Shown one piece after another: positions 1 through 51,171 of a stretch of DNA of 64,000 bases. A model generated the notes under the pieces. That model was given only the letters and a program-made list of their open reading frames with translations. It was not told where the DNA came from and ran no database searches. Numbering within the stretch: position 1 is the first letter of the stretch; each line of letters starts with the position of its first letter. A program made the translations under genes and the position numbers. This DNA is from a virus, in IMG/VR virus record IMGVR_UViG_3300044974_000943. The stretch is one strand, 5' to 3'.

Positions 1-2407
1 TGGCGTAGTTATTTCATCTCAACCTTCATTCAGAGAATTTGTTGGGGCTTACTTTAGCTTTGACTTTGCGACTATCGCAATTGACGAATTTTTTGATATC
101 ACTTCGTACAGTTATATATCTCCAAGTGGTTTAGGACTAAGCTTCACAGGTTCAGTTTTATCAGGTTATATACCTGAAGTTTTTGATGGTAGTTTTAGCA
201 TCAGCATCACTAACAGCAATAGTATGGTGTCTTATTTTAGTTTTTCACTAGAAACTGTAATAGCAGACCCCTTTATTCTTGACTTACCACAACAATCAAA
301 CATAGCGGTATCACTTTCCACGTTAAAAGATGTAGATGACATACCTTACGGAATTTACACCGATAATTTTGGCAACATAACTAAATGGGAAGACTCACGC
401 CGATTACCTGATAAGCCTCTGTACGTCACCAGCACAGCCGATTCGGTCAACCAAATAACTTACAACGGTACGACCTCTTCCTTCATCACCAATAGTTCTC
501 TCAATCCTCGTTCACTCTCAGGCACTTCAGTCAATTGCAAAACCTTCATTTGGGTATATAAGCAGAAACAAACTGGTGAACGCTTCATGGCTAACGGCTT
601 TCCAGATATATTTGCCAATGGTGTTCTTTGGACTACAGGAACCAGTGATGATGTGTTTGGAACTACAGCTATAACGCAGTTGAACACAAAAGTCAACAAA
701 GTTGGGGTCAATACTTTTAATTATCGCCAACCCATAGAATACGGCGCAATCATCGCGGCTACTAATGCAACTTCTTCAATAGGCTTTAGTGGATTCTCTT
801 CTCAACTGAAAGGGGAACTACTGTATTTCATTGGTTGGTCTGTTGCATTGAGCGAAGCTGAACTAACCACCGCTACACACTTACTAGCCAACAAGTTTTT
901 TGATTCTACTTTACTGTTGTTTAACACTTCAACTGAGTTTAGATATAGCTCTGACGTTATTGTTAACCTCAACAAAAAGGTCACTGAAATTGCTGGCAAC
1001 GCAGTCAGCTATGAAATACTGGTCAACCACTACTCGGCAACAATAACTGGCAACGACCTCACCTTTACTTGCCCGACCGACGATTTTATCAGTTTCGCCA
1101 TCCGAGCCTACACAGCTACCGAGTCTGTCACTTTCAGTTTTAACGTCAGCATCACTTTACTTACTAATCAGCTTTACATCAACTTGAAAGGACTGCTTAA
1201 TACCTTCAGTTCATTTTTCATCGTCACACCTGAAACCGTTACACTATCAAGCGGTAACATACTCCAACTAGATGAATACAGAACAAATGGTCAAGAGCTT
1301 TTAGGAGTGAACGCAGTAAACTATACTACCCCAACTCAACTTGATGGACTACCTGCGGCTCGATTCAACATAGATGGCTCTTCGCACCTCGACTTTGGTA
1401 CTCCTAGCAGTAGTAGTGGTTACTGTTTCATCATGGCTTACATCCGCAAAGCAGGGCAGACTGGTACAGCTTTCCTATTTGGTCAGGATAGCAACAACAT
1501 TTTCAATTCTGGGAACAATGGAGAATTACTGGCAAATGACTTCTACGGGGACGTTTGGGCGAACGGTGCAGAAAGAGAGCGTGATTATGTGCTACCTGAA
1601 GAATCGCTAAGCGTAGTCATTTTCAACTCGACTGACCTAGTTACCATCAATTCCATTGCTAAGGACAGGGTGTTCGAGGACAGGAGTGTAAAAGGCAGTG
1701 TAGCCATGTTTTGTATTGTGGACTACAAGATTAGTCCAACTTCTTTTTCTGCCATCGAGCGAAGCATTCGCGACTACTACCAGCCAGCTAAAATAGTTAC
1801 GTTACTGAACTTCGATAGCAGCATCGTTGACCAGAGTTATCGCGCCAAGACCTTGAGTAGCAACATTTCGGTACTTGACACTGTGACCAAGAAGTTCGGA
1901 GCCGCCAGCTTCCCTATCGCCAAGAACAGTGTGCCAGCTTATGTGCAAATACCAAATGACTCAGACTTCTCTTTTCTGTCGGGCGATTTTACAATTGCGG
2001 GTTGGCTGCTTACTGACCAAGCTACTGATGGTGAGGTGGTTAACATCTACACACAACAAGGAATTTCGCTATTCTTTTCTACCGACCGATTGTACTTAGG
2101 GCGCTCTCTAATACTTGGGCTTGCTCTCTTTTCTGTCGTTTTGCCACTATCCTCGACTGTGTTCAATCACATTGCCCTAACAAGACAAAATGGAACAATG
2201 AGGTTGTATGTTGGTGGAGTTCGAGTATATGAAGCTGCTGATGACTACGAGTACCGTGACTGGAATACACCTGCACAAATAGGACAAGCCACTGCAATAA
2301 CTACAAGCGGCTTGAACATCAATTTGGATTCTTTTGTGGTATATCGAAGAATTTCGCTTTACAACGGCGCAAGCTTCTCGCCGCCTAGTAGTGCTTATGC
2401 AGTTTAG
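1..2407 (+). CDS. Large tail-fibre/structural protein with Ig-like segments and C-terminal LamG/ConA-like lectin domain (5'-truncated by window)
   Basis: Frame is open from nt 2 through the ORF-track ATG at 224. C-terminal LamG signature GDFTIAGW...FNHIALTRQNGTMRLYVGG...LDSFVVYR. Confidence 0.7.
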   Translation, partial: GVVISSQPSFREFVGAYFSFDFATIAIDEFFDITSYSYISPSGLGLSFTGSVLSGYIPEVFDGSFSISITNSNSMVSYFSFSLETVIADPFILDLPQQSNIAVSLSTLKDVDDIPYGIYTDNFGNITKWEDSRRLPDKPLYVTSTADSVNQITYNGTTSSFITNSSLNPRSLSGTSVNCKTFIWVYKQKQTGERFMANGFPDIFANGVLWTTGTSDDVFGTTAITQLNTKVNKVGVNTFNYRQPIEYGAIIAATNATSSIGFSGFSSQLKGELLYFIGWSVALSEAELTTATHLLANKFFDSTLLLFNTSTEFRYSSDVIVNLNKKVTEIAGNAVSYEILVNHYSATITGNDLTFTCPTDDFISFAIRAYTATESVTFSFNVSITLLTNQLYINLKGLLNTFSSFFIVTPETVTLSSGNILQLDEYRTNGQELLGVNAVNYTTPTQLDGLPAARFNIDGSSHLDFGTPSSSSGYCFIMAYIRKAGQTGTAFLFGQDSNNIFNSGNNGELLANDFYGDVWANGAERERDYVLPEESLSVVIFNSTDLVTINSIAKDRVFEDRSVKGSVAMFCIVDYKISPTSFSAIERSIRDYYQPAKIVTLLNFDSSIVDQSYRAKTLSSNISVLDTVTKKFGAASFPIAKNSVPAYVQIPNDSDFSFLSGDFTIAGWLLTDQATDGEVVNIYTQQGISLFFSTDRLYLGRSLILGLALFSVVLPLSSTVFNHIALTRQNGTMRLYVGGVRVYEAADDYEYRDWNTPAQIGQATAITTSGLNINLDSFVVYRRISLYNGASFSPPSSAYAV

Positions 2408-44112: not shown

Positions 44113-44183
44113 GCCCAAAGTCAGATTCGGACTGACGACCTTTGGTTTACAAAACCACTGCTCTCCCACTGAGCTAATAACCC
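44112..44183 (-). pseudogene. Chimeric tRNA-Thr(UGU)-like gene with unpaired acceptor stem
   Basis: D, anticodon (TGT) and T arms fold, but 5' GGGTTAT cannot pair with 3' TTTGGGC; T-loop is TCCGAAT. Confidence 0.7.
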
Positions 44184-45598: not shown

Positions 45599-45637
45599 TG
45601 TTTATGTTTTTTATATGTTATACTGTATTTATTATAC

Positions 45638-46483
45638 ATGAAAGGACGAGTATACGCAATGGTTGAGACTTGGATTTTATATCAAACTACGAACGTTTGC
45701 AATGGCAAAATTTATGTTGGGGTACATAAATTAGCTAACACTAAAAGGTCTAAGAATTATCTTGGAAGTGGTTATGCTTTGAAACCAGCTATCGAAAAAT
45801 ACGGCATAGAAAATTTTACCAGAGTAACTTTAGCAGAATTCAATTGCCCCGAAAATGCCTACGATGCTGAAGCTAAGGTAGTTACAGCAGATTTTATTCT
45901 ACGTGAAGATACCTACAATATTAGATTGGGTGGTAAAGGGTGTTGGGGTTTGAAACATTCAGAGGAAACTAAAAAGAAGATGTCTGTTACCAAGAAAGGT
46001 ACGGTTGTGAATCCTGAAACTAGGATGAAACTCAGTACTGCACTAAAAGGTAAACCCAAAACGGAAGAAACTAAAAGAAAGATGAGCGCTAGTCAAAAAG
46101 GTAAAAAAATTAGCGAAGAACATAGAGCCAGTATTAAAATTTCCCATAACACACCTGAAGCTAAAGCTAATATGAGTGCTGCTCAAAAGGGCAAAAAACT
46201 GAGTGAAGAGCATAAATTAAAAATCAGTGTGGCTAAAAGTGGGGTAAATAACCATAATTTTGGCAAACCTTGTCCTGACGCAATTAAAGCGAAAATTAGT
46301 GCAGCTTGTAGTGTACCTGTAATAGTATGTGGAGAATACTATAAATCTATTGACAAAGCTTCAAAAACTAAAGAAGTTACCTATAAGACAGTATTCTACA
46401 GAGTTAAATCTGACAATCCGAAATGGTCAGAATGGCGCTTAGCTACCGATGCAGAAAAATTGTCTCATCTGAGTGAGTTATAA
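45638..46483 (+). CDS. Free-standing Seg-like GIY-YIG homing endonuclease with NUMOD3 repeats
   Basis: ILYQTTNVCNGKIYVGVH...YLGSG...YGIENF...E...YN; multiple SEETKKKMS-type repeats. TGTTATACT promoter at 45616-45624. Confidence 0.9.
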   Translation: MKGRVYAMVETWILYQTTNVCNGKIYVGVHKLANTKRSKNYLGSGYALKPAIEKYGIENFTRVTLAEFNCPENAYDAEAKVVTADFILREDTYNIRLGGKGCWGLKHSEETKKKMSVTKKGTVVNPETRMKLSTALKGKPKTEETKRKMSASQKGKKISEEHRASIKISHNTPEAKANMSAAQKGKKLSEEHKLKISVAKSGVNNHNFGKPCPDAIKAKISAACSVPVIVCGEYYKSIDKASKTKEVTYKTVFYRVKSDNPKWSEWRLATDAEKLSHLSEL

Positions 46484-46486
46484 TGA

Positions 46487-48046
46487 ATGCAATCAATAAA
46501 ACTTTTTATTATCCCTATGCCGATGTTCGAGGAAGCAACCCAGTTAAGCCTATTAGAAGACCTAGACGATTCTTTGTTGTTTGCTGGGACTCCTACGCCT
46601 ATGGCAGCACTTCAACAAGGGATGTACTCAGTAGAAATTCAGTCGTTAACGGCAGATGCACAAGCCGAAATAAATCATCCAAACGAAACTGAGCGCCCCA
46701 GCATAAAACAGTTAAGTGAGCTAGGTAATCGCGACCCCGTAGCCAAACAGTGCTTAAGTTTCAAAGCGTTAAGATGTACAAGCTCATTTGGCGAATACTC
46801 CCACAGCAAGCGCGAGATAGAAGAATTTGTAAACTCAAATTTAAGAACATTACCAAAAAGCTTTAAAAAAATTATATTTCAGATTTTTACCTCAGCTATT
46901 CTCTATGGGATAGGTCTTGCTGAGTTCACTAAATCGTCTAAAATAAGGGGGTATCGTGGTCAATGGCGTATAGGTAATATTCACGTTTTAAATCCTGAGC
47001 AAATCATATCTTTCGGAAAATCCTCTAAAAGTTCTGGGAAAATTGAGTGGGTACTTTACGATAATGGAAATGGGAAGCAAGTAAAAATTCCATATCAGAA
47101 GCTCTTGCATATCACAAACACAAGCGGGGCAGCCTTTGATAAGACCGCGATTTGGGGTGTAGGCGACGGTGCAGCCGCAAATTCGTACTACAAATTAAAA
47201 AAAGTAGTACTCACACACCTAGCACTCCGCATCAAAAACGATAGCGAAGGTCTACTCTGGGCAAAAACACCCAACAACGGTACGACCACAATGGTTGACA
47301 CCCAAGGTAACGTTAAAAAAGACAACAAGGGCAAGCCACTCCAACTAACAAAACAAGCTGCTCTTTCGCACCAACTAAAAGACATTCAAAAGCGAGGATT
47401 CATCGTCACCGATAACGACGTAGAACTCAGCCGCATCCAAATACAAAACACCAGCGAAAATCACTTCAAAGCGTTAGAATACATCGATAGAGGCATTCAA
47501 TCCAGTTTTGCCATACCTTCAGGCATCTTTGACGTTAATAGCGGCTCAGGAACGACAAATCTAGGTAATAACGGCTTTGGTCAAAATTTCAAGATGACCT
47601 TTGACTCAACCATCTTCGCACTAACTACCACACTCAAGCACGAAATTATCCACAAAATGATTCGTGGCTTATTACACGACAACTTCCCTTCAAGTTGGTT
47701 CAGCGAAGATTGGGGCGAGTTTGTATTCGATGTCGAAGAAGACCAAGCAACAGTTAATGGTCGTCTCAGCACTATTACTTCACTTATTGCATCTGGCATC
47801 ATTCCTGCCGATGACGTTGAGGTACTTAGCCTTATCCGTAAGAACCTTGGATTACCTTCACTCGATGAAGACGAAAAAGCCAAGAAACAAGAAGATGCAC
47901 TTAAAGCTGAGATACAAAAAGAATTACAAAAACAAAGTGAAGTATTGGCTCTACAGGCTCAAATCCAGCAAATGCAGATGCCTCCTGCCCCACCAGAAGG
48001 ACAACCTGAGCAATATCCTCTTCAAGAGGGAGCGCCGCAAGCATAG
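46487..48046 (+). CDS. Portal protein (Mu gp29/DUF935-like)
   Basis: About 510 aa; RDPVAKQCL, AILYGIGLAE, FKALEYIDRGI...IP and IRKNLGLP motifs are typical of this portal class. Confidence 0.75.
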   Translation: MQSIKLFIIPMPMFEEATQLSLLEDLDDSLLFAGTPTPMAALQQGMYSVEIQSLTADAQAEINHPNETERPSIKQLSELGNRDPVAKQCLSFKALRCTSSFGEYSHSKREIEEFVNSNLRTLPKSFKKIIFQIFTSAILYGIGLAEFTKSSKIRGYRGQWRIGNIHVLNPEQIISFGKSSKSSGKIEWVLYDNGNGKQVKIPYQKLLHITNTSGAAFDKTAIWGVGDGAAANSYYKLKKVVLTHLALRIKNDSEGLLWAKTPNNGTTTMVDTQGNVKKDNKGKPLQLTKQAALSHQLKDIQKRGFIVTDNDVELSRIQIQNTSENHFKALEYIDRGIQSSFAIPSGIFDVNSGSGTTNLGNNGFGQNFKMTFDSTIFALTTTLKHEIIHKMIRGLLHDNFPSSWFSEDWGEFVFDVEEDQATVNGRLSTITSLIASGIIPADDVEVLSLIRKNLGLPSLDEDEKAKKQEDALKAEIQKELQKQSEVLALQAQIQQMQMPPAPPEGQPEQYPLQEGAPQA

Positions 48047-48067
48047 TAGTTATGTTATACTAAAAAA

Positions 48068-48293
48068 GTCCTAGAGGGATTCGTAGGCATTACGAAATTA
48101 CTGATTTCTAGAGTCGGTGGTTGAACCTGTCAAAAACCGTAGGCATCACGGGACTCTTAACTGAGGCGCAAAAGTTAAGAGTCAAAACTGCCTGATATCT
48201 ACAGGCTCTGAAAGGCTACTAACAGTCCTCAAACTTCGGAGCGAAACAGCAGACTAAGCCTCTCACTGAAGCTGAAACTAGTCTGCGCCCTCT
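48068..48293 (+). ncRNA. Candidate structured ncRNA (~225 nt)
   Basis: Own promoter TGTTATACT (48053-48061); five hairpins, A-rich joiners, and terminal stem AGAGGG/CCCTCT; no ORF in the track. Confidence 0.7.
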
Positions 48294-48467
48294 TTATTCT
48301 TTTTCATCTGACGAAGTTGCCGCTTGCTCCTTCTTTTTTCTGACGTATTTTTTAGTTTCTTTTTCTACAACAGGACTAATCAAATTTTGTAGCCCTGTTT
48401 GATAAATATTTGCAAAGTTAGCGCCCGACGAATGAGCCTTAGCGAAATGAGTGAAGTGTTTCATCAT
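48294..48467 (-). CDS. Small protein with MKHFTHF...GANF leader (putative head cargo)
   Basis: Real start is ATG 48467 or 48464, just after the upstream stop at 48472. Confidence 0.55.
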   Translation of the reverse strand: MMKHFTHFAKAHSSGANFANIYQTGLQNLISPVVEKETKKYVRKKKEQAATSSDEKE

Positions 48468-48471
48468 ATTT

Positions 48472-51171
48472 TTATGGGGTAGTATCGATTGTTGTGGTTC
48501 CAGAGTAAGCGCTGATTTTGGTGCTATTGAAAGCATACAACCTAGCATAATATACAGTCGTTCCACTCAATCCGAAGATTAAGAATTTGTTATCAGCAGA
48601 CCTAGTAACACTAAGCTCTTCGAGAATTGTGAAAGTACTTGCACGACTAATCTCCAACTTATAATCGGTAGCATTACTTACTTGAGCGAACGTAATCTCA
48701 ACTTGACTTTCATCAAGTATATTGACATTAGTAATACTTGGCGCTGAAGATATAGCTAACGCTGTATATAGCTCTGCTGGTGTATTGATGGTAAGTGTAG
48801 TTGATGGCGAAGCTGTGCGATTAGTACCGTTATACCCATAAGCACGTAAATAATATGTGCGATTAGGTTTGAGTAAAAGCTCGATATTATTGGAACTGCT
48901 CTCAAAATAGGTATTGTCGAGTGTGAATGCACTATCTCGCGCCAAATTGACTAGATACTTAGAATAGCCAGTTAACACTACGTTTGCTCGGTCAAAATCA
49001 GCACTTCCACTAAGAGTTACTGTAGGAACCGTAAGAGATGCAGTACTAGGTTCTTCTGTATCACTAAACAAATTAGTTTTGAATAGGTATGGAGTAGAAA
49101 CATTTGAATTGGAGTCATATACAATTACCTGATATTGTGTGTCAGCAGAAAGAGATTCAAATGTGTAGCTATTAACGTCACCAACATTTTTTGGGAACGT
49201 GAAGCCACTTACAGGCACATAGTTGCCAGTATCTAGCACTTTTAGTTGGACACTGTATGAAGTAGCTCCAGCACTGCGCTTCCAGATGGCAGAAAAGGAA
49301 GTTTTGCCAACGATGCCCTTGTAGACCGCCAAAGCTGATGTACTGACCACATTGGAGTAAATGCCGCCGTTAAAGTTGCCGCGAATATAGTAATTGTTGT
49401 TGGAATCGAGCAAATTCTCTATATTGAAGCTGCCATTGTTTGCTACGCTTCTTGGATACCCTCTAAGCAAGAACTTGAAGTCAGAATCAGTGCTAACTTC
49501 AAGATTGTTGAGATTGTATGTCCAAGTTAGGAGGTTTTTGGCTAGTTGCAGTATAGGTGCAGCCGCTTTGGTCGAAAATGTCTGTATTGCAGTTGTTTTT
49601 GTGTCGCCAGATGCTGTTTTTCCAGTGATTGTGTAGCTGTAGTTTCTACTTGGCTCTAAGAATAGGTCAATTGTATGTGTGTTGGTGTTGCCGAGGCTCT
49701 TGTTGCGGTAGAAGTTGACCCCTAAGTAAGCATTTGACTCTGTTTTCCATACTGACAGCAAATAATTGGTGTAGCTGCCATTCAAAGTCCACCCAATAAC
49801 TGCCGAAGTATCGGTAATGCTAGTTGTAGTGATTCCAGTGATGCTTGTAAGGGCTGCTGAAGTTGTTGTAGTAACTGCATTGGAGTAATCTGAGGACTGA
49901 CTAGAATTGAGCGCCCTAATACGTGAATAATAGATTGTTGCAGGGCTAATGCCTTCATCCAACAACAAAGACCCGACATTCCCTACGATAGTAGAATAAG
50001 CAACCGAAGCAAATACGGATGAAGTACTTAACTCAAACAAATATCGAGTTGCATAACTGCGTAGAACCCATTGAAATAAGATACTACGAGAAGTGATTGT
50101 TGTCGGTGTGAGCAGTTGAGGGGGATTGAGAGAAGTATTAAGTGAAAGAGTAGTTACAACTTGTGTAGCGGAATATGCAGTCGTTTGCCATACAGAAATT
50201 GCCCGTACTCGCACATAGTAAACAGTTGCCGTAGTTAGTCCCGTAAAGCTGACCGACGTATTCTTGGTTGCAATAGTTTGCAAGATGCTGCTGAAATCTG
50301 ATGTAGCTGAAATTTGGACGCTATAGCTATCCGCCAAAGCCACTGCGTTCCAAGATACAGAAAAAGAAGTGAGGTAAATATCACTGATGTTGCTAATACT
50401 AGGAGTTGTGAGGTTCTGAAATTGTTCGTCATAAGTCTCTACGTCTCGAAGCGTCGTAAAAATAACCACATTGCTGCTAGATGAAGTTGTCGTGCCATCT
50501 GAAGCCCTTACACGATAGTAATATTGGTTTTCAGCCGTAAGTGACCCTACATCGCGAAAACCGACATCCCCAGCGTTGACGTTGTTTAGTATTAAAGAAG
50601 TAAACGCAGTGTCGGTTGCCAAATCTACAAAATAGGTGGTCGCGCCAGTTACTTTGCCCCAGTTAAGCTTTGCAGATATAGCCGTCAGGCTGGTTGTTCC
50701 TAGAGCATCAGGGATAGGAAAATTTGTCGTTGTTGAGAGTGAAGCTGAAGTCCACGCCGATAAACCAGTTTCATTTGAGAAGCGTAAGCGGTAGTAGTAT
50801 AGAGTTGAAGCCGCTAAGCCGCCAATAGTAAGTGCAAGAGTTTCTTTTTCTGTCGCAACTACGTTAGTGTCGAGTAAGAATGTCAAATTAGAATAAAGTG
50901 GTGCGCTAAAATCAGCGTTTACCGATACGTCAAGTTTTAGCTCTTTTATGTACTCGTTAGGTGCAGTTTTTTGTAGTTCTACTCTAATAGAGTTACTATC
51001 TTTTTTTGTCGCTACTATTATGGGTTGAGATGGTGATGGAGGAGTAACGCCGATGTTACTTGATGATGCAGGAGTAGTTACTGAGACTATATTTGAGTAG
51101 GCAGATTCACCATCAAGATTGACAGCTTTGGTGCGGTAGTAATATGTGGTAGATGGTTTGATTACAGTCAT
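48472..51171 (-). CDS. Fibronectin type III repeat protein (virion surface/fibre)
   Basis: Many W...A-x-x-Y...L-x-x-x-T-x-YY-x-RVRA-x-N...YS FN3 units. Confidence 0.85.
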   Translation of the reverse strand: MTVIKPSTTYYYRTKAVNLDGESAYSNIVSVTTPASSSNIGVTPPSPSQPIIVATKKDSNSIRVELQKTAPNEYIKELKLDVSVNADFSAPLYSNLTFLLDTNVVATEKETLALTIGGLAASTLYYYRLRFSNETGLSAWTSASLSTTTNFPIPDALGTTSLTAISAKLNWGKVTGATTYFVDLATDTAFTSLILNNVNAGDVGFRDVGSLTAENQYYYRVRASDGTTTSSSSNVVIFTTLRDVETYDEQFQNLTTPSISNISDIYLTSFSVSWNAVALADSYSVQISATSDFSSILQTIATKNTSVSFTGLTTATVYYVRVRAISVWQTTAYSATQVVTTLSLNTSLNPPQLLTPTTITSRSILFQWVLRSYATRYLFELSTSSVFASVAYSTIVGNVGSLLLDEGISPATIYYSRIRALNSSQSSDYSNAVTTTTSAALTSITGITTTSITDTSAVIGWTLNGSYTNYLLSVWKTESNAYLGVNFYRNKSLGNTNTHTIDLFLEPSRNYSYTITGKTASGDTKTTAIQTFSTKAAAPILQLAKNLLTWTYNLNNLEVSTDSDFKFLLRGYPRSVANNGSFNIENLLDSNNNYYIRGNFNGGIYSNVVSTSALAVYKGIVGKTSFSAIWKRSAGATSYSVQLKVLDTGNYVPVSGFTFPKNVGDVNSYTFESLSADTQYQVIVYDSNSNVSTPYLFKTNLFSDTEEPSTASLTVPTVTLSGSADFDRANVVLTGYSKYLVNLARDSAFTLDNTYFESSSNNIELLLKPNRTYYLRAYGYNGTNRTASPSTTLTINTPAELYTALAISSAPSITNVNILDESQVEITFAQVSNATDYKLEISRASTFTILEELSVTRSADNKFLIFGLSGTTVYYARLYAFNSTKISAYSGTTTIDTTP

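Follow-up and report, generated by a model that had tools for sequence, protein, structure and literature searches.

AbiF antitoxin RNAs and phage RNAs that resemble them

RNA anti-CRISPRs (Racr) are solitary CRISPR-repeat mimics that are carried by phages and target Cas complexes. Antitoxins of toxin-antitoxin systems are imitated as well: according to the account in PMC13064643, which cites Blower 2012, phages evade ToxIN by means of RNAs that mimic its antitoxin. Here, we analyze a stretch of 64,000 nucleotides from a virus (IMG/VR record IMGVR_UViG_3300044974_000943; referred to as the window, with all positions counted from its first letter), in which the gap at positions 48047-48293, next to the portal gene, holds a predicted RNA element. 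Its two 3′ hairpins, U1 and U2, are very probably homologous to the abiF kind of antitoxin RNA, the RNA partner of AbiF, an Abi_2-family HEPN ribonuclease (RNase) of a type III toxin-antitoxin or abortive-infection system. On balance, and by analogy with the pseudo-ToxI RNA of phage phiTE, we favor the view that U1 and U2 act as a toxin-less antitoxin decoy against a host AbiF.

U1 and U2 share with the abiF motif (RF03085), AbiFr of the Prevotellaceae AbiF (PDB 8VZ6) and RCd22 an outer stem, a bulged A, a 3-bp inner helix that is AGC/GCU, replaced by AGG/CCU in the cyanobacterial subtype, an apical loop and a CAAA-type 3′ bulge. RCd22 of C. difficile phi027 contains two abiF motifs in tandem, as does the window RNA, and neutralizes AbiF in trans by direct binding (bioRxiv 10.1101/2025.04.15.648962). 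In contrast to the members of RF03085, however, the window units are not accompanied by an abiF gene, have a divergent apical loop and score below the gathering threshold, and they are located inside a longer RNA with two unrelated 5′ modules, M1 and M2, and a predicted phage promoter. The window RNA resembles Racr in being a small phage RNA that would imitate the RNA partner of a host defense protein, but its model would be the antitoxin of a toxin-antitoxin system instead.

As far as the account in PMC13064643 goes, pseudo-ToxI of the Pectobacterium phage phiTE is likewise a phage RNA that resembles a host type III antitoxin and is carried without the toxin. Both traits are found here: the phage RNA is homologous to host antitoxin RNA according to the models R1 and R3 (see below), and the toxin is absent from the window and from five related records. 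In the same account, ToxN is an endoribonuclease of another fold and the RNA is made of 36-nt pseudoknot repeats, whereas the window system would pair a HEPN-type AbiF with hairpins; moreover, the escape of phiTE is reported there as shown experimentally, whereas that of the window phage is suggested by analogy and from sequence alone. The cyanophage S-CREM1 has an annotated abiF small RNA, with its 'exact regulatory role unconfirmed' (PMC9964418; reviewed in PMC12197685). As far as these sources describe it, S-CREM1 is a T4-like Synechococcus phage with one canonical motif (51.6 bits), in contrast to the divergent two-unit array with extra modules of the window, and the annotation contains neither a link to a host AbiF nor a decoy reading, whereas the window units are tied to host AbiF hairpins. 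A hairpin at the cos site of the lactococcal phage sk1 is said in PMC13064643 to inhibit AbiF and to be unlike the AbiF non-coding RNA. The literature searched contained no published claim of a phage-borne AbiF antitoxin decoy.

The hairpin units U1 and U2 and their host counterparts

U1 (48205-48242, plus strand, G type) and U2 (48249-48286, plus strand, C type) are each 38 nt long and follow one plan, that of RF03085, in which a bulged A separates the 7-bp stem from an inner helix of 3 bp, the latter carries the apical loop, and an SAAACU bulge precedes the returning stem. In U1, the stem GCUCUGA/UCGGAGC encloses A-AGG-CUACUAACAGU-CCU-CAAACU, and in U2, the stem GCAGACU/AGUCUGC encloses A-AGC-CUCUCACUGAA-GCU-GAAACU, so that both units fit the abiF-motif plan that was tested (outer stem of 6–7 bp, A bulge, 3-bp helix, loop of ~11 nt and 6-nt bulge). 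An initial annotation of this DNA had listed the stem of U2 (GCAGACTA/TAGTCTGC, 48249-86), which is present and covaries; all other hairpins on its list are also found in the sequence, but U1 had been overlooked. RF03085 aligns U2 over its full length (48249-48287; 18.6 bits, E 1.5 in a 601-nt search), and U2 has all 18 conserved loop bases of the family consensus (AAGCCUCUCA-NN-GA-N-GCU-N-AAA). U1 retains AAG.CU...CU.AAAC, with the inner pair flipped in a compensatory manner, as in the host hairpins that are linked to AbiF. The orthologous hairpin in three relatives scores 21 bits with RF03085 (E 0.004-0.017 per phage record).

More than 118 viral contigs contain the 18-base loop pattern, as do more than 119 species genomes, the latter being mostly Bacteroidales among the matches listed. 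Nearly all matches have complementary flanking stems and favor the consensus bases at the free positions, which indicates that the pattern captures a genuine family and that U2 lies within its natural variation. The exact loop variant AAGCCTCTCANNGAAGCTGAAA has no match in 185,579 species genomes. As the pattern had been picked after the U2 match was seen, independent evidence was sought from relatives and hosts.

A model built from phage units only, R1, scores U1 with 51.7 bits and U2 with 47 bits on the plus strand, compared with 11 bits on the minus strand, and a filter-free scan of the whole window returns exactly these two units, with nothing above 12.4 bits elsewhere. Among seven distinct phage units, gathered with a script that retained only candidates with at least 6/7 stem pairs, 100% of the cells are paired, compensatory changes are seen at 8/10 pairs and 0/500 shuffles are as good; with 16 distinct phage and host units, 100% of the cells are again paired and 8/10 pairs covary. 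The loop of U1 is found on different stems (GCUCUGA/UCGGAGC, GCUCCGA/UCGGAGC in the contig L246 and ACCCUGC/GCGGGGU in L248), the stem of U2 occurs in variants that each have a matching partner (GCAGACU, GCAGACC/GGUCUGC in L250 and GCACACC/GGUGUGC in L245), and the inner helix alternates between AGC/GCU and AGG/CCU among units. The U.G pairs, together with scores of 47-52 bits on the plus and 11 bits on the minus strand, identify the plus strand as the RNA strand. Covariation among homologs collected near related portals, an approach that had been proposed at the outset, is thus seen for U1 and U2. The RNA had also been regarded as wholly novel, which no longer applies to its two 3′ hairpins, as these appear to be divergent members of the abiF antitoxin RNAs.

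Host counterparts were found in Pseudanabaenaceae, for which 71 species genomes were searched, the Pseudanabaena genomes having been reached by a HIP1 pattern scan. R1, although derived from phage units only, matches 30/71 of these genomes at E<=1. The strong matches (30-46 bits) are hairpins of the form ACCCGCC-AAGGCUAUGCGAAAGUAUCCUCAAACUG(U)-GCGGGU, each with a TTGACA-type promoter in front of it and a U run behind it, and most of them are located ~20 nt upstream of an open reading frame (ORF) of ~298 aa. Host ORFs of 298 and 299 aa match the Pfam family Abi_2 with E-values of 3.9e-58 and 1.5e-59, respectively, and a truncated 196-aa copy does so with 6.8e-44. A strong Abi_2 gene is present in ten of the 71 genomes, nine of which have the hairpin at that gene, and these AbiF loci belong to metagenome-assembled genomes of Pseudanabaena sp. 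The alignment of the host AbiF to PbAbiF (PDB 8VZ6; E 4e-58) is full-length and contains the R-N-x-x-x-H HEPN motif; the structure of PbAbiF was solved with its non-coding RNA and is a dimer with one antitoxin RNA per subunit (PMC12737573).

As a non-circular check, a model built from host hairpins only, R3, was run on both strands of the whole window; it ranks U2 first (17.0 bits, E ~0.014) and U1 second (16.6 bits, E ~0.018). The loop ends of U1, AAGGCUA...CCUCAAACU, are identical to those of the host hairpins upstream of Abi_2 genes, and the loop ends of U2, AAGCCUCU...GCUGAAACU, are identical to those of the host hairpin L378, which passes the Rfam gathering threshold at 44.6 bits. In one phage unit (u1 of L250), the full host apical loop is found and only the inner pair is flipped.

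A toxin gene was not detected in the phage. No abiF (Abi_2) gene follows U1 and U2, as there is no plus-strand gene downstream, and no ORF of the 64-kb window resembles AbiF (best E 0.24) in a search with a hidden Markov model of 57 AbiF proteins, which are encoded downstream of abiF motifs. Likewise, Pfam Abi_2 has no match in five related phage records, one of which is 100% complete. As no abiF gene comes after the units, the element is not a regular RF03085 member but a candidate orphan or decoy and, given the absence of the units from complete relatives, an accessory, toxin-less antitoxin look-alike.

Several further hairpins and Abi_2 genes were noted in these searches. The host hairpin L378 (genome G051, 1501-1538, minus strand) is an orphan abiF hairpin that precedes a DUF29 gene, and L379 (genome G026, 1501-1541) is an orphan hairpin in front of an apparently degraded abiF start, in a genome without an Abi_2 match. 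Exact-loop scans of IMG/VR yielded, beyond the contigs already known, only the single orphan hairpins L430 (2017-2057, plus strand) and L432 (2343-2383, minus strand). Both have the exact host-type loop AAGGCUAUGCGAAAGUAUCCUCAAA and no Abi_2-sized ORF downstream; the stem of L430 covaries and that of L432 is host-like. L430 and L432 may thus represent additional toxin-less copies in phage-like contigs. At the host loci L416, L417, L418 and L377, there is a second Abi_2 subfamily of shorter proteins (MPRELSDTDL..., 226-227 aa, Pfam E ~1e-6), with a conserved CUUAAGACAUUGGG-UGUCUGGGGUC ~60-120 nt upstream, which is in tandem in L416, and a distal complementary ACCCCAGAGCC. We consider this upstream sequence a candidate antitoxin RNA of a distinct, so far undescribed kind.

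The RNA element and the portal-proximal slot

The whole element is predicted to be a non-coding RNA of ~225-235 nt with its own extended -10 promoter and a chain of four hairpin modules, M1, M2, U1 and U2. The gap at 48047-48293 contains no ORF of at least 40 aa and lies between convergent genes, immediately 3′ of the portal gene as initially described, since the portal ORF ends at 48046. Its plus strand folds with -78.8 kcal/mol (z -3.77, 0/200 shuffles as good), and the fold of the minus strand is weaker (z -2.05 only). The -10 element claimed earlier (TGTTATACT, 48053-61, plus strand) is confirmed in the sequence and is part of a putative extended -10 promoter TATGTTATACT (TG-n-TATACT; 48051-48061, plus strand) that lacks a -35 and has a predicted start near 48067-48069; a sigma-70 scan of the window found no -35-bearing promoter at the element. 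The motif TRTGYTATAYT occurs in three copies in the window, compared with 0.45 expected, the other two being located at 44424-34 (minus strand) ahead of a tRNA cluster and at 45614-24 (plus strand) ahead of a GIY-YIG gene. Directly after the portal stop, the -10 motif is kept in all insert-carrying relatives and is missing in the insert-less contig L242. The plus-strand fold and the conserved -10 motif are in agreement with the initial prediction of a promoter-bearing structured non-coding RNA on the plus strand. The U-rich tail CCCUCUUUAUUCUUUUUC (48287-48305, plus strand), which overlaps the end of a small minus-strand ORF, is a possible 3′ end, and the host hairpins likewise have a U run 6-8 nt downstream. 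A simple terminator scan found no canonical plus-strand terminator at the element.

Rfam at gathering thresholds gives no match across the gap, which is consistent with the earlier statement that the RNA is not a tRNA, tmRNA, RNase P RNA or known ribozyme. At E<=10, the Rfam scan of the gap returns, besides the abiF motif, only spurious HOTAIR_3 and CrcZ matches, and among 50,697 phage records, none was matched by the element in a blastn search in distant mode. While every sequence feature that had been listed is present where it was placed, not all of the proposed pairings hold among relatives. The closing helix AGAGGG/CCCTCT (48073-78/48288-93) can form only in the window-type variant, and its 3′ arm lies within the flank, the CGCCCT core of which is kept in every slot variant. 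The GCCTG/CAGGC stem (48190-206) is present in the window but broken in L003 and L248, and the loop-loop complementarities, proposed as kissing loops, show no co-variation among relatives. On the minus strand, terminator-like hairpins with T runs are seen at 48206-48190 and 48151-48137, neither of which is conserved in L003 or L248.

In the 5′ part of the RNA, the twin hairpins at 48080-96 and 48137-51 and the 11-bp stem at 48152-83 from the initial annotation are supported as parts of two paralogous modules. In M1 (48079-48135, plus strand), CGUAGGCAUUACG is followed by a hairpin of 9–11 bp (AAUUACUGA/UCGGUGGUU), after which come the bulge GAACC and a UGUC that is able to pair with GGCA. In M2 (48136-48196, plus strand), CCGUAGGCAUCACGG is followed by an 11-bp stem (GACUCUUAACU/AGUUAAGAGUC), after which come the bulge AAAAC and a UGCC that pairs with GGCA. 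Their common plan is therefore CGUAGGCAUYACG, a long hairpin, an RAAC-type 3′ bulge and UGYC able to pair with GGCA. In the model of the M modules, 17/17 pairs form in 4/4 sequences, five pairs are changed on both sides and three U.G pairs point to the plus strand. Despite their sequence differences, M1 and M2 have all nine inner pairs in common, with four compensatory and three U.G changes; this covariation is moderate evidence, as it comes from a single paralog comparison with a structure derived from the same sequences.

A covariance model of the M modules, R2, scores M1 with 60.8 bits and M2 with 81.8 bits in the window, and M2 of L248 with 81.4 bits. M2 is conserved in L003, L243 and L248, the last of which retains a 9-bp stem but has a different 21-nt loop. 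R2 has no credible match in the 71 host-family genomes (best 22 bits, inside coding sequence) and finds only L248's own M2 in 94 loci that cover abiF-hairpin viral contigs, relatives and cyanophage-like contigs (88 viral contigs with abiF-like hairpins, L005-L095, together with L245, L246, L248, L250, L430 and L432). In 151 cyanobacterial genomes, R2 gives a single isolated 31.5-bit hairpin between convergent genes. This match (L443 in genome G161, reverse strand, 1501-1558) is an 11-bp hairpin GAUCCCCGACU/AGUCGGGGAUC followed by UAAACUGC and could be a terminator or a repeat element. A DNA search for the 5′ domain in the 71 host-family genomes gave chance-level matches only, its local alignment to the upstream regions of the second Abi_2 subfamily is not significant, and the twin-loop motif CGTAGGCATYACG has no further copy in the window or in 424 loci. 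Both modules are genuine structures and paralogs of each other, and they could function as a scaffold, as processing signals or as decoys for another partner.

To describe the variation of the locus, the element was compared with nine related contigs, the relatives being portal-anchored IMG/VR loci. Among them, hypervariable content is found in the slot that separates the portal stop from the small ORF. This slot is empty in L242, holds a T5orf172/MUG113 nuclease-like gene in Pam2 (L002, 2780-3388) and a 273-aa minus-strand gene without a Pfam family in PA-SR01 (L001, 2930-4070), L244 (4040-5160) and L251 (2040-2684), and is occupied by the RNA element, in five versions, in ten contigs. In PA-SR01, a ~70-nt repeat with a bidirectional terminator is present in one copy on either side of the 273-aa gene. 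Every version of the RNA element was seen to start with TRTGYTATAYT and to end with one or two hairpins of 38-41 nt, which are of one design in all versions (7-bp stem, A, AGS, apical loop, SCU, SAAACU and returning stem), so that the relatives carry one or two units, with or without M modules. The window-type version, with two units, is found in the window, in L003 and in the contig 3300042525_001281 (loci L004 and L243). No R1 units are present in the complete genomes of PA-SR01, Pam2 and G078, and the element is also missing from L242; the portal proteins of these four are 77-85% identical to that of the window. The complete genome G002 has exactly two R1 units, both at the portal slot. A metagenome scan with the portal C-terminus returned two loci only, both with the PA-SR01-type insert. 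The element is accessory, dispensable and modular, and the portal-proximal slot is an insertion hot spot.

The genes on both sides of the slot lie outside the RNA. The left flank is the portal gene (46487-48046, plus strand), a 519-aa ORF with matches to Portal_Mu (2.7e-9) and Phage_portal (5.7e-7) in Pfam, the product of which shares 77-85% identity with the portal proteins encoded by 12 IMG/VR contigs. The right flank is a small conserved ORF (48294-48566, minus strand, with its stop at 48294-96) that has annotated homologs (QIW88494.1 and Pam2_52) and matches no Pfam family; it is followed by a gene for an 899-aa fibronectin-repeat protein. The flanking genes have 82-84% DNA identity to the Pseudanabaena phages PA-SR01 and Pam2, which shows the window to be part of a ~140-kb Pseudanabaena-type cyanophage. 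A GIY-YIG/NUMOD3 homing-endonuclease-like gene (45638-46483, plus strand; Pfam NUMOD3 6e-18) is located between a 248-aa minus-strand gene and the portal gene, behind a copy of the motif TATGTTATACT at 45614-45624, and looks like an insertion because the portal gene directly follows the minus-strand gene in PA-SR01 and Pam2. A partial third tRNA (44120-44176, minus strand; Rfam 41.5 bits, model positions 8-63) lies beside tRNA-Asn and tRNA-Gly and has no ARAGORN call.

A putative AbiF decoy and alternative functions

Since no toxin gene was found in the window or in five related phage records, the RNA is probably made to disarm an AbiF defense. In our analysis, this reading is based on the homology and covariation of the units, the linkage of their counterparts to host AbiF, the absence of the toxin and the accessory, modular nature of the locus; by analogy, the phage RNA would be transcribed, bind AbiF and neutralize it. 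In an uninfected cell, the AbiF dimer would be kept inactive by its own RNA. Infection would starve the cell of antitoxin RNA and thereby free the RNase, but the phage promoter would supply look-alike hairpins, so that AbiF stays occupied and abortive infection is escaped. AbiF itself may cleave the transcript into its single units, which has been reported for AbiFr. U1 and U2 are distinguished by their inner helix (AGG/CCU and AGC/GCU, respectively) and by the first base of the bulge (C and G, respectively), and as the same two classes are found among the host hairpins, the array may cover two AbiF specificities. A protein sponge had already been considered in the initial annotation, which was the right direction but was assigned to the wrong hairpins, those with the twin GGCAU loops, whereas the identifiable partner belongs to the 3′ units U1 and U2.

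Several points weigh against a decoy. Neither unit reaches the Rfam gathering score of 37 bits (18.6 bits for U2 and no match for U1), and the apical 7-11 nt of U1 and U2 are unlike those of every host hairpin found; with such divergent loops and sub-threshold scores, binding of the units to a real AbiF is not assured. A strong AbiF is encoded by only ten of the 71 species genomes of the host family, the closest host hairpin of U2 (L378) is in a genome without an Abi_2 match, and no C-type partner was identified in the host group. M1 and M2, which make up more than half of the RNA, are left outside the explanation. In addition, the promoter, the 5′ and 3′ ends of the transcript and any processing are predicted, and the host of the window phage is deduced from its relatives PA-SR01 and Pam2.

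M1 and M2 would be accounted for by a multi-specific sponge, in which all four modules are decoys. U1 and U2 would neutralize two specificity classes of host AbiF, possibly once AbiF has cut the chain, and M1 and M2, a hairpin type absent from all host genomes and RNA catalogs that were searched but with the same RAAAC 3′ bulge, would imitate an undescribed RNA partner of another HEPN-type or RNA-restrained defense. We regard this as unlikely; if true, however, the slot would be an RNA-only counter-defense island with modules that are swapped between phages. We give still less credence to the idea that the units are the leftover of a captured abiF toxin-antitoxin cassette, used for instance in superinfection exclusion as in C. 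difficile phi027, which has lost its toxin and whose hairpins are decaying with no present role. Complete AbiF systems, with the RNA in the upstream position, are indeed found in prophages (bioRxiv 10.1101/2025.04.15.648962), and orphan hairpins also exist in hosts (L379 with its degraded gene start, and L378 in a genome without Abi_2). However, no Abi_2 remnant is found in the slot of any of the ten element-carrying contigs, the promoter is conserved, and the number and type of units have been reshuffled and not eroded. The stem changes are compensatory only, with 100% of the cells paired, which points to selection on the RNA fold rather than to a leftover.

Alternatively, the element could mark a boundary for convergent transcription and provide terminators or stabilizing ends for the portal (plus strand) and tail-fiber-like (minus strand) operons, consistent with its position in a gap between convergent genes, with the two minus-strand terminator-like calls described above and with the classical bidirectional terminator in the same slot of PA-SR01-type relatives. 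We consider this very unlikely: the terminator-like calls are at chance level (2, compared with 0.7 +/- 0.8 in shuffles), and while one of the hairpins cannot form in L003, the other lacks its T run in L248. Moreover, abiF-like units with 24-nt loops make poor terminators, no plus-strand terminator was found in the scan, and a boundary function would leave both the loop identity to host AbiF hairpins and the dedicated promoter unexplained.

We have equally strong doubts about a decoy for another RNA-guided or RNA-restrained defense, such as a repeat mimic directed against a Cas13-like HEPN effector, with M1 and M2 as possibly active parts. A descent of Cas13 from AbiF and its RNA has been proposed (PMC12737573), an RAAAC-like 3′ bulge is found in each of the four modules at the end of the inner helix, before the closing stem, and M1 and M2 have no AbiF-type loop. 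However, M1 and M2 have no host counterpart in the 71 family genomes, where the best score of 22 bits falls in coding sequence, and only the one 31.5-bit hairpin among the 151 cyanobacterial genomes, whereas the units match hairpins specifically at Abi_2 genes. Finally, the analogy to the packaging RNA (pRNA) of phi29 raised in the initial annotation, or a related structural RNA or portal-linked phage riboregulator, is hardly tenable: although the element adjoins the portal gene in all carriers and has complementary loops within the window copy, neither pRNA nor any other supporting Rfam family matches even at E<=10, the set of modules varies between carriers, the loop complementarities are not co-conserved, and its absence from complete genomes with 77-85% identical portals indicates that it is not essential for packaging, being dispensable in PA-SR01, Pam2, G078 and L242. 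Membership in the pRNA family was rejected, as there is no Rfam match and no conservation across related phages.

The Rfam abiF model misses the cyanobacterial subtype to which these hairpins lead. AbiF is widespread as an RNase of abortive infection and has been proposed as the ancestor of Cas13, and phage countermeasures against it are barely known beyond the cos hairpin of sk1. The locus lends itself as a test case, since a host partner has been identified, namely the Pseudanabaena AbiF with its own hairpin, and relatives with one, two or no units are available; in addition, its two units mirror the two host hairpin classes, and two further covarying modules are present on the same RNA. If the decoy reading is true, the RNA would correspond, for AbiF, to pseudo-ToxI and to the RNA anti-CRISPRs, and thus be a concrete case of counter-defense.

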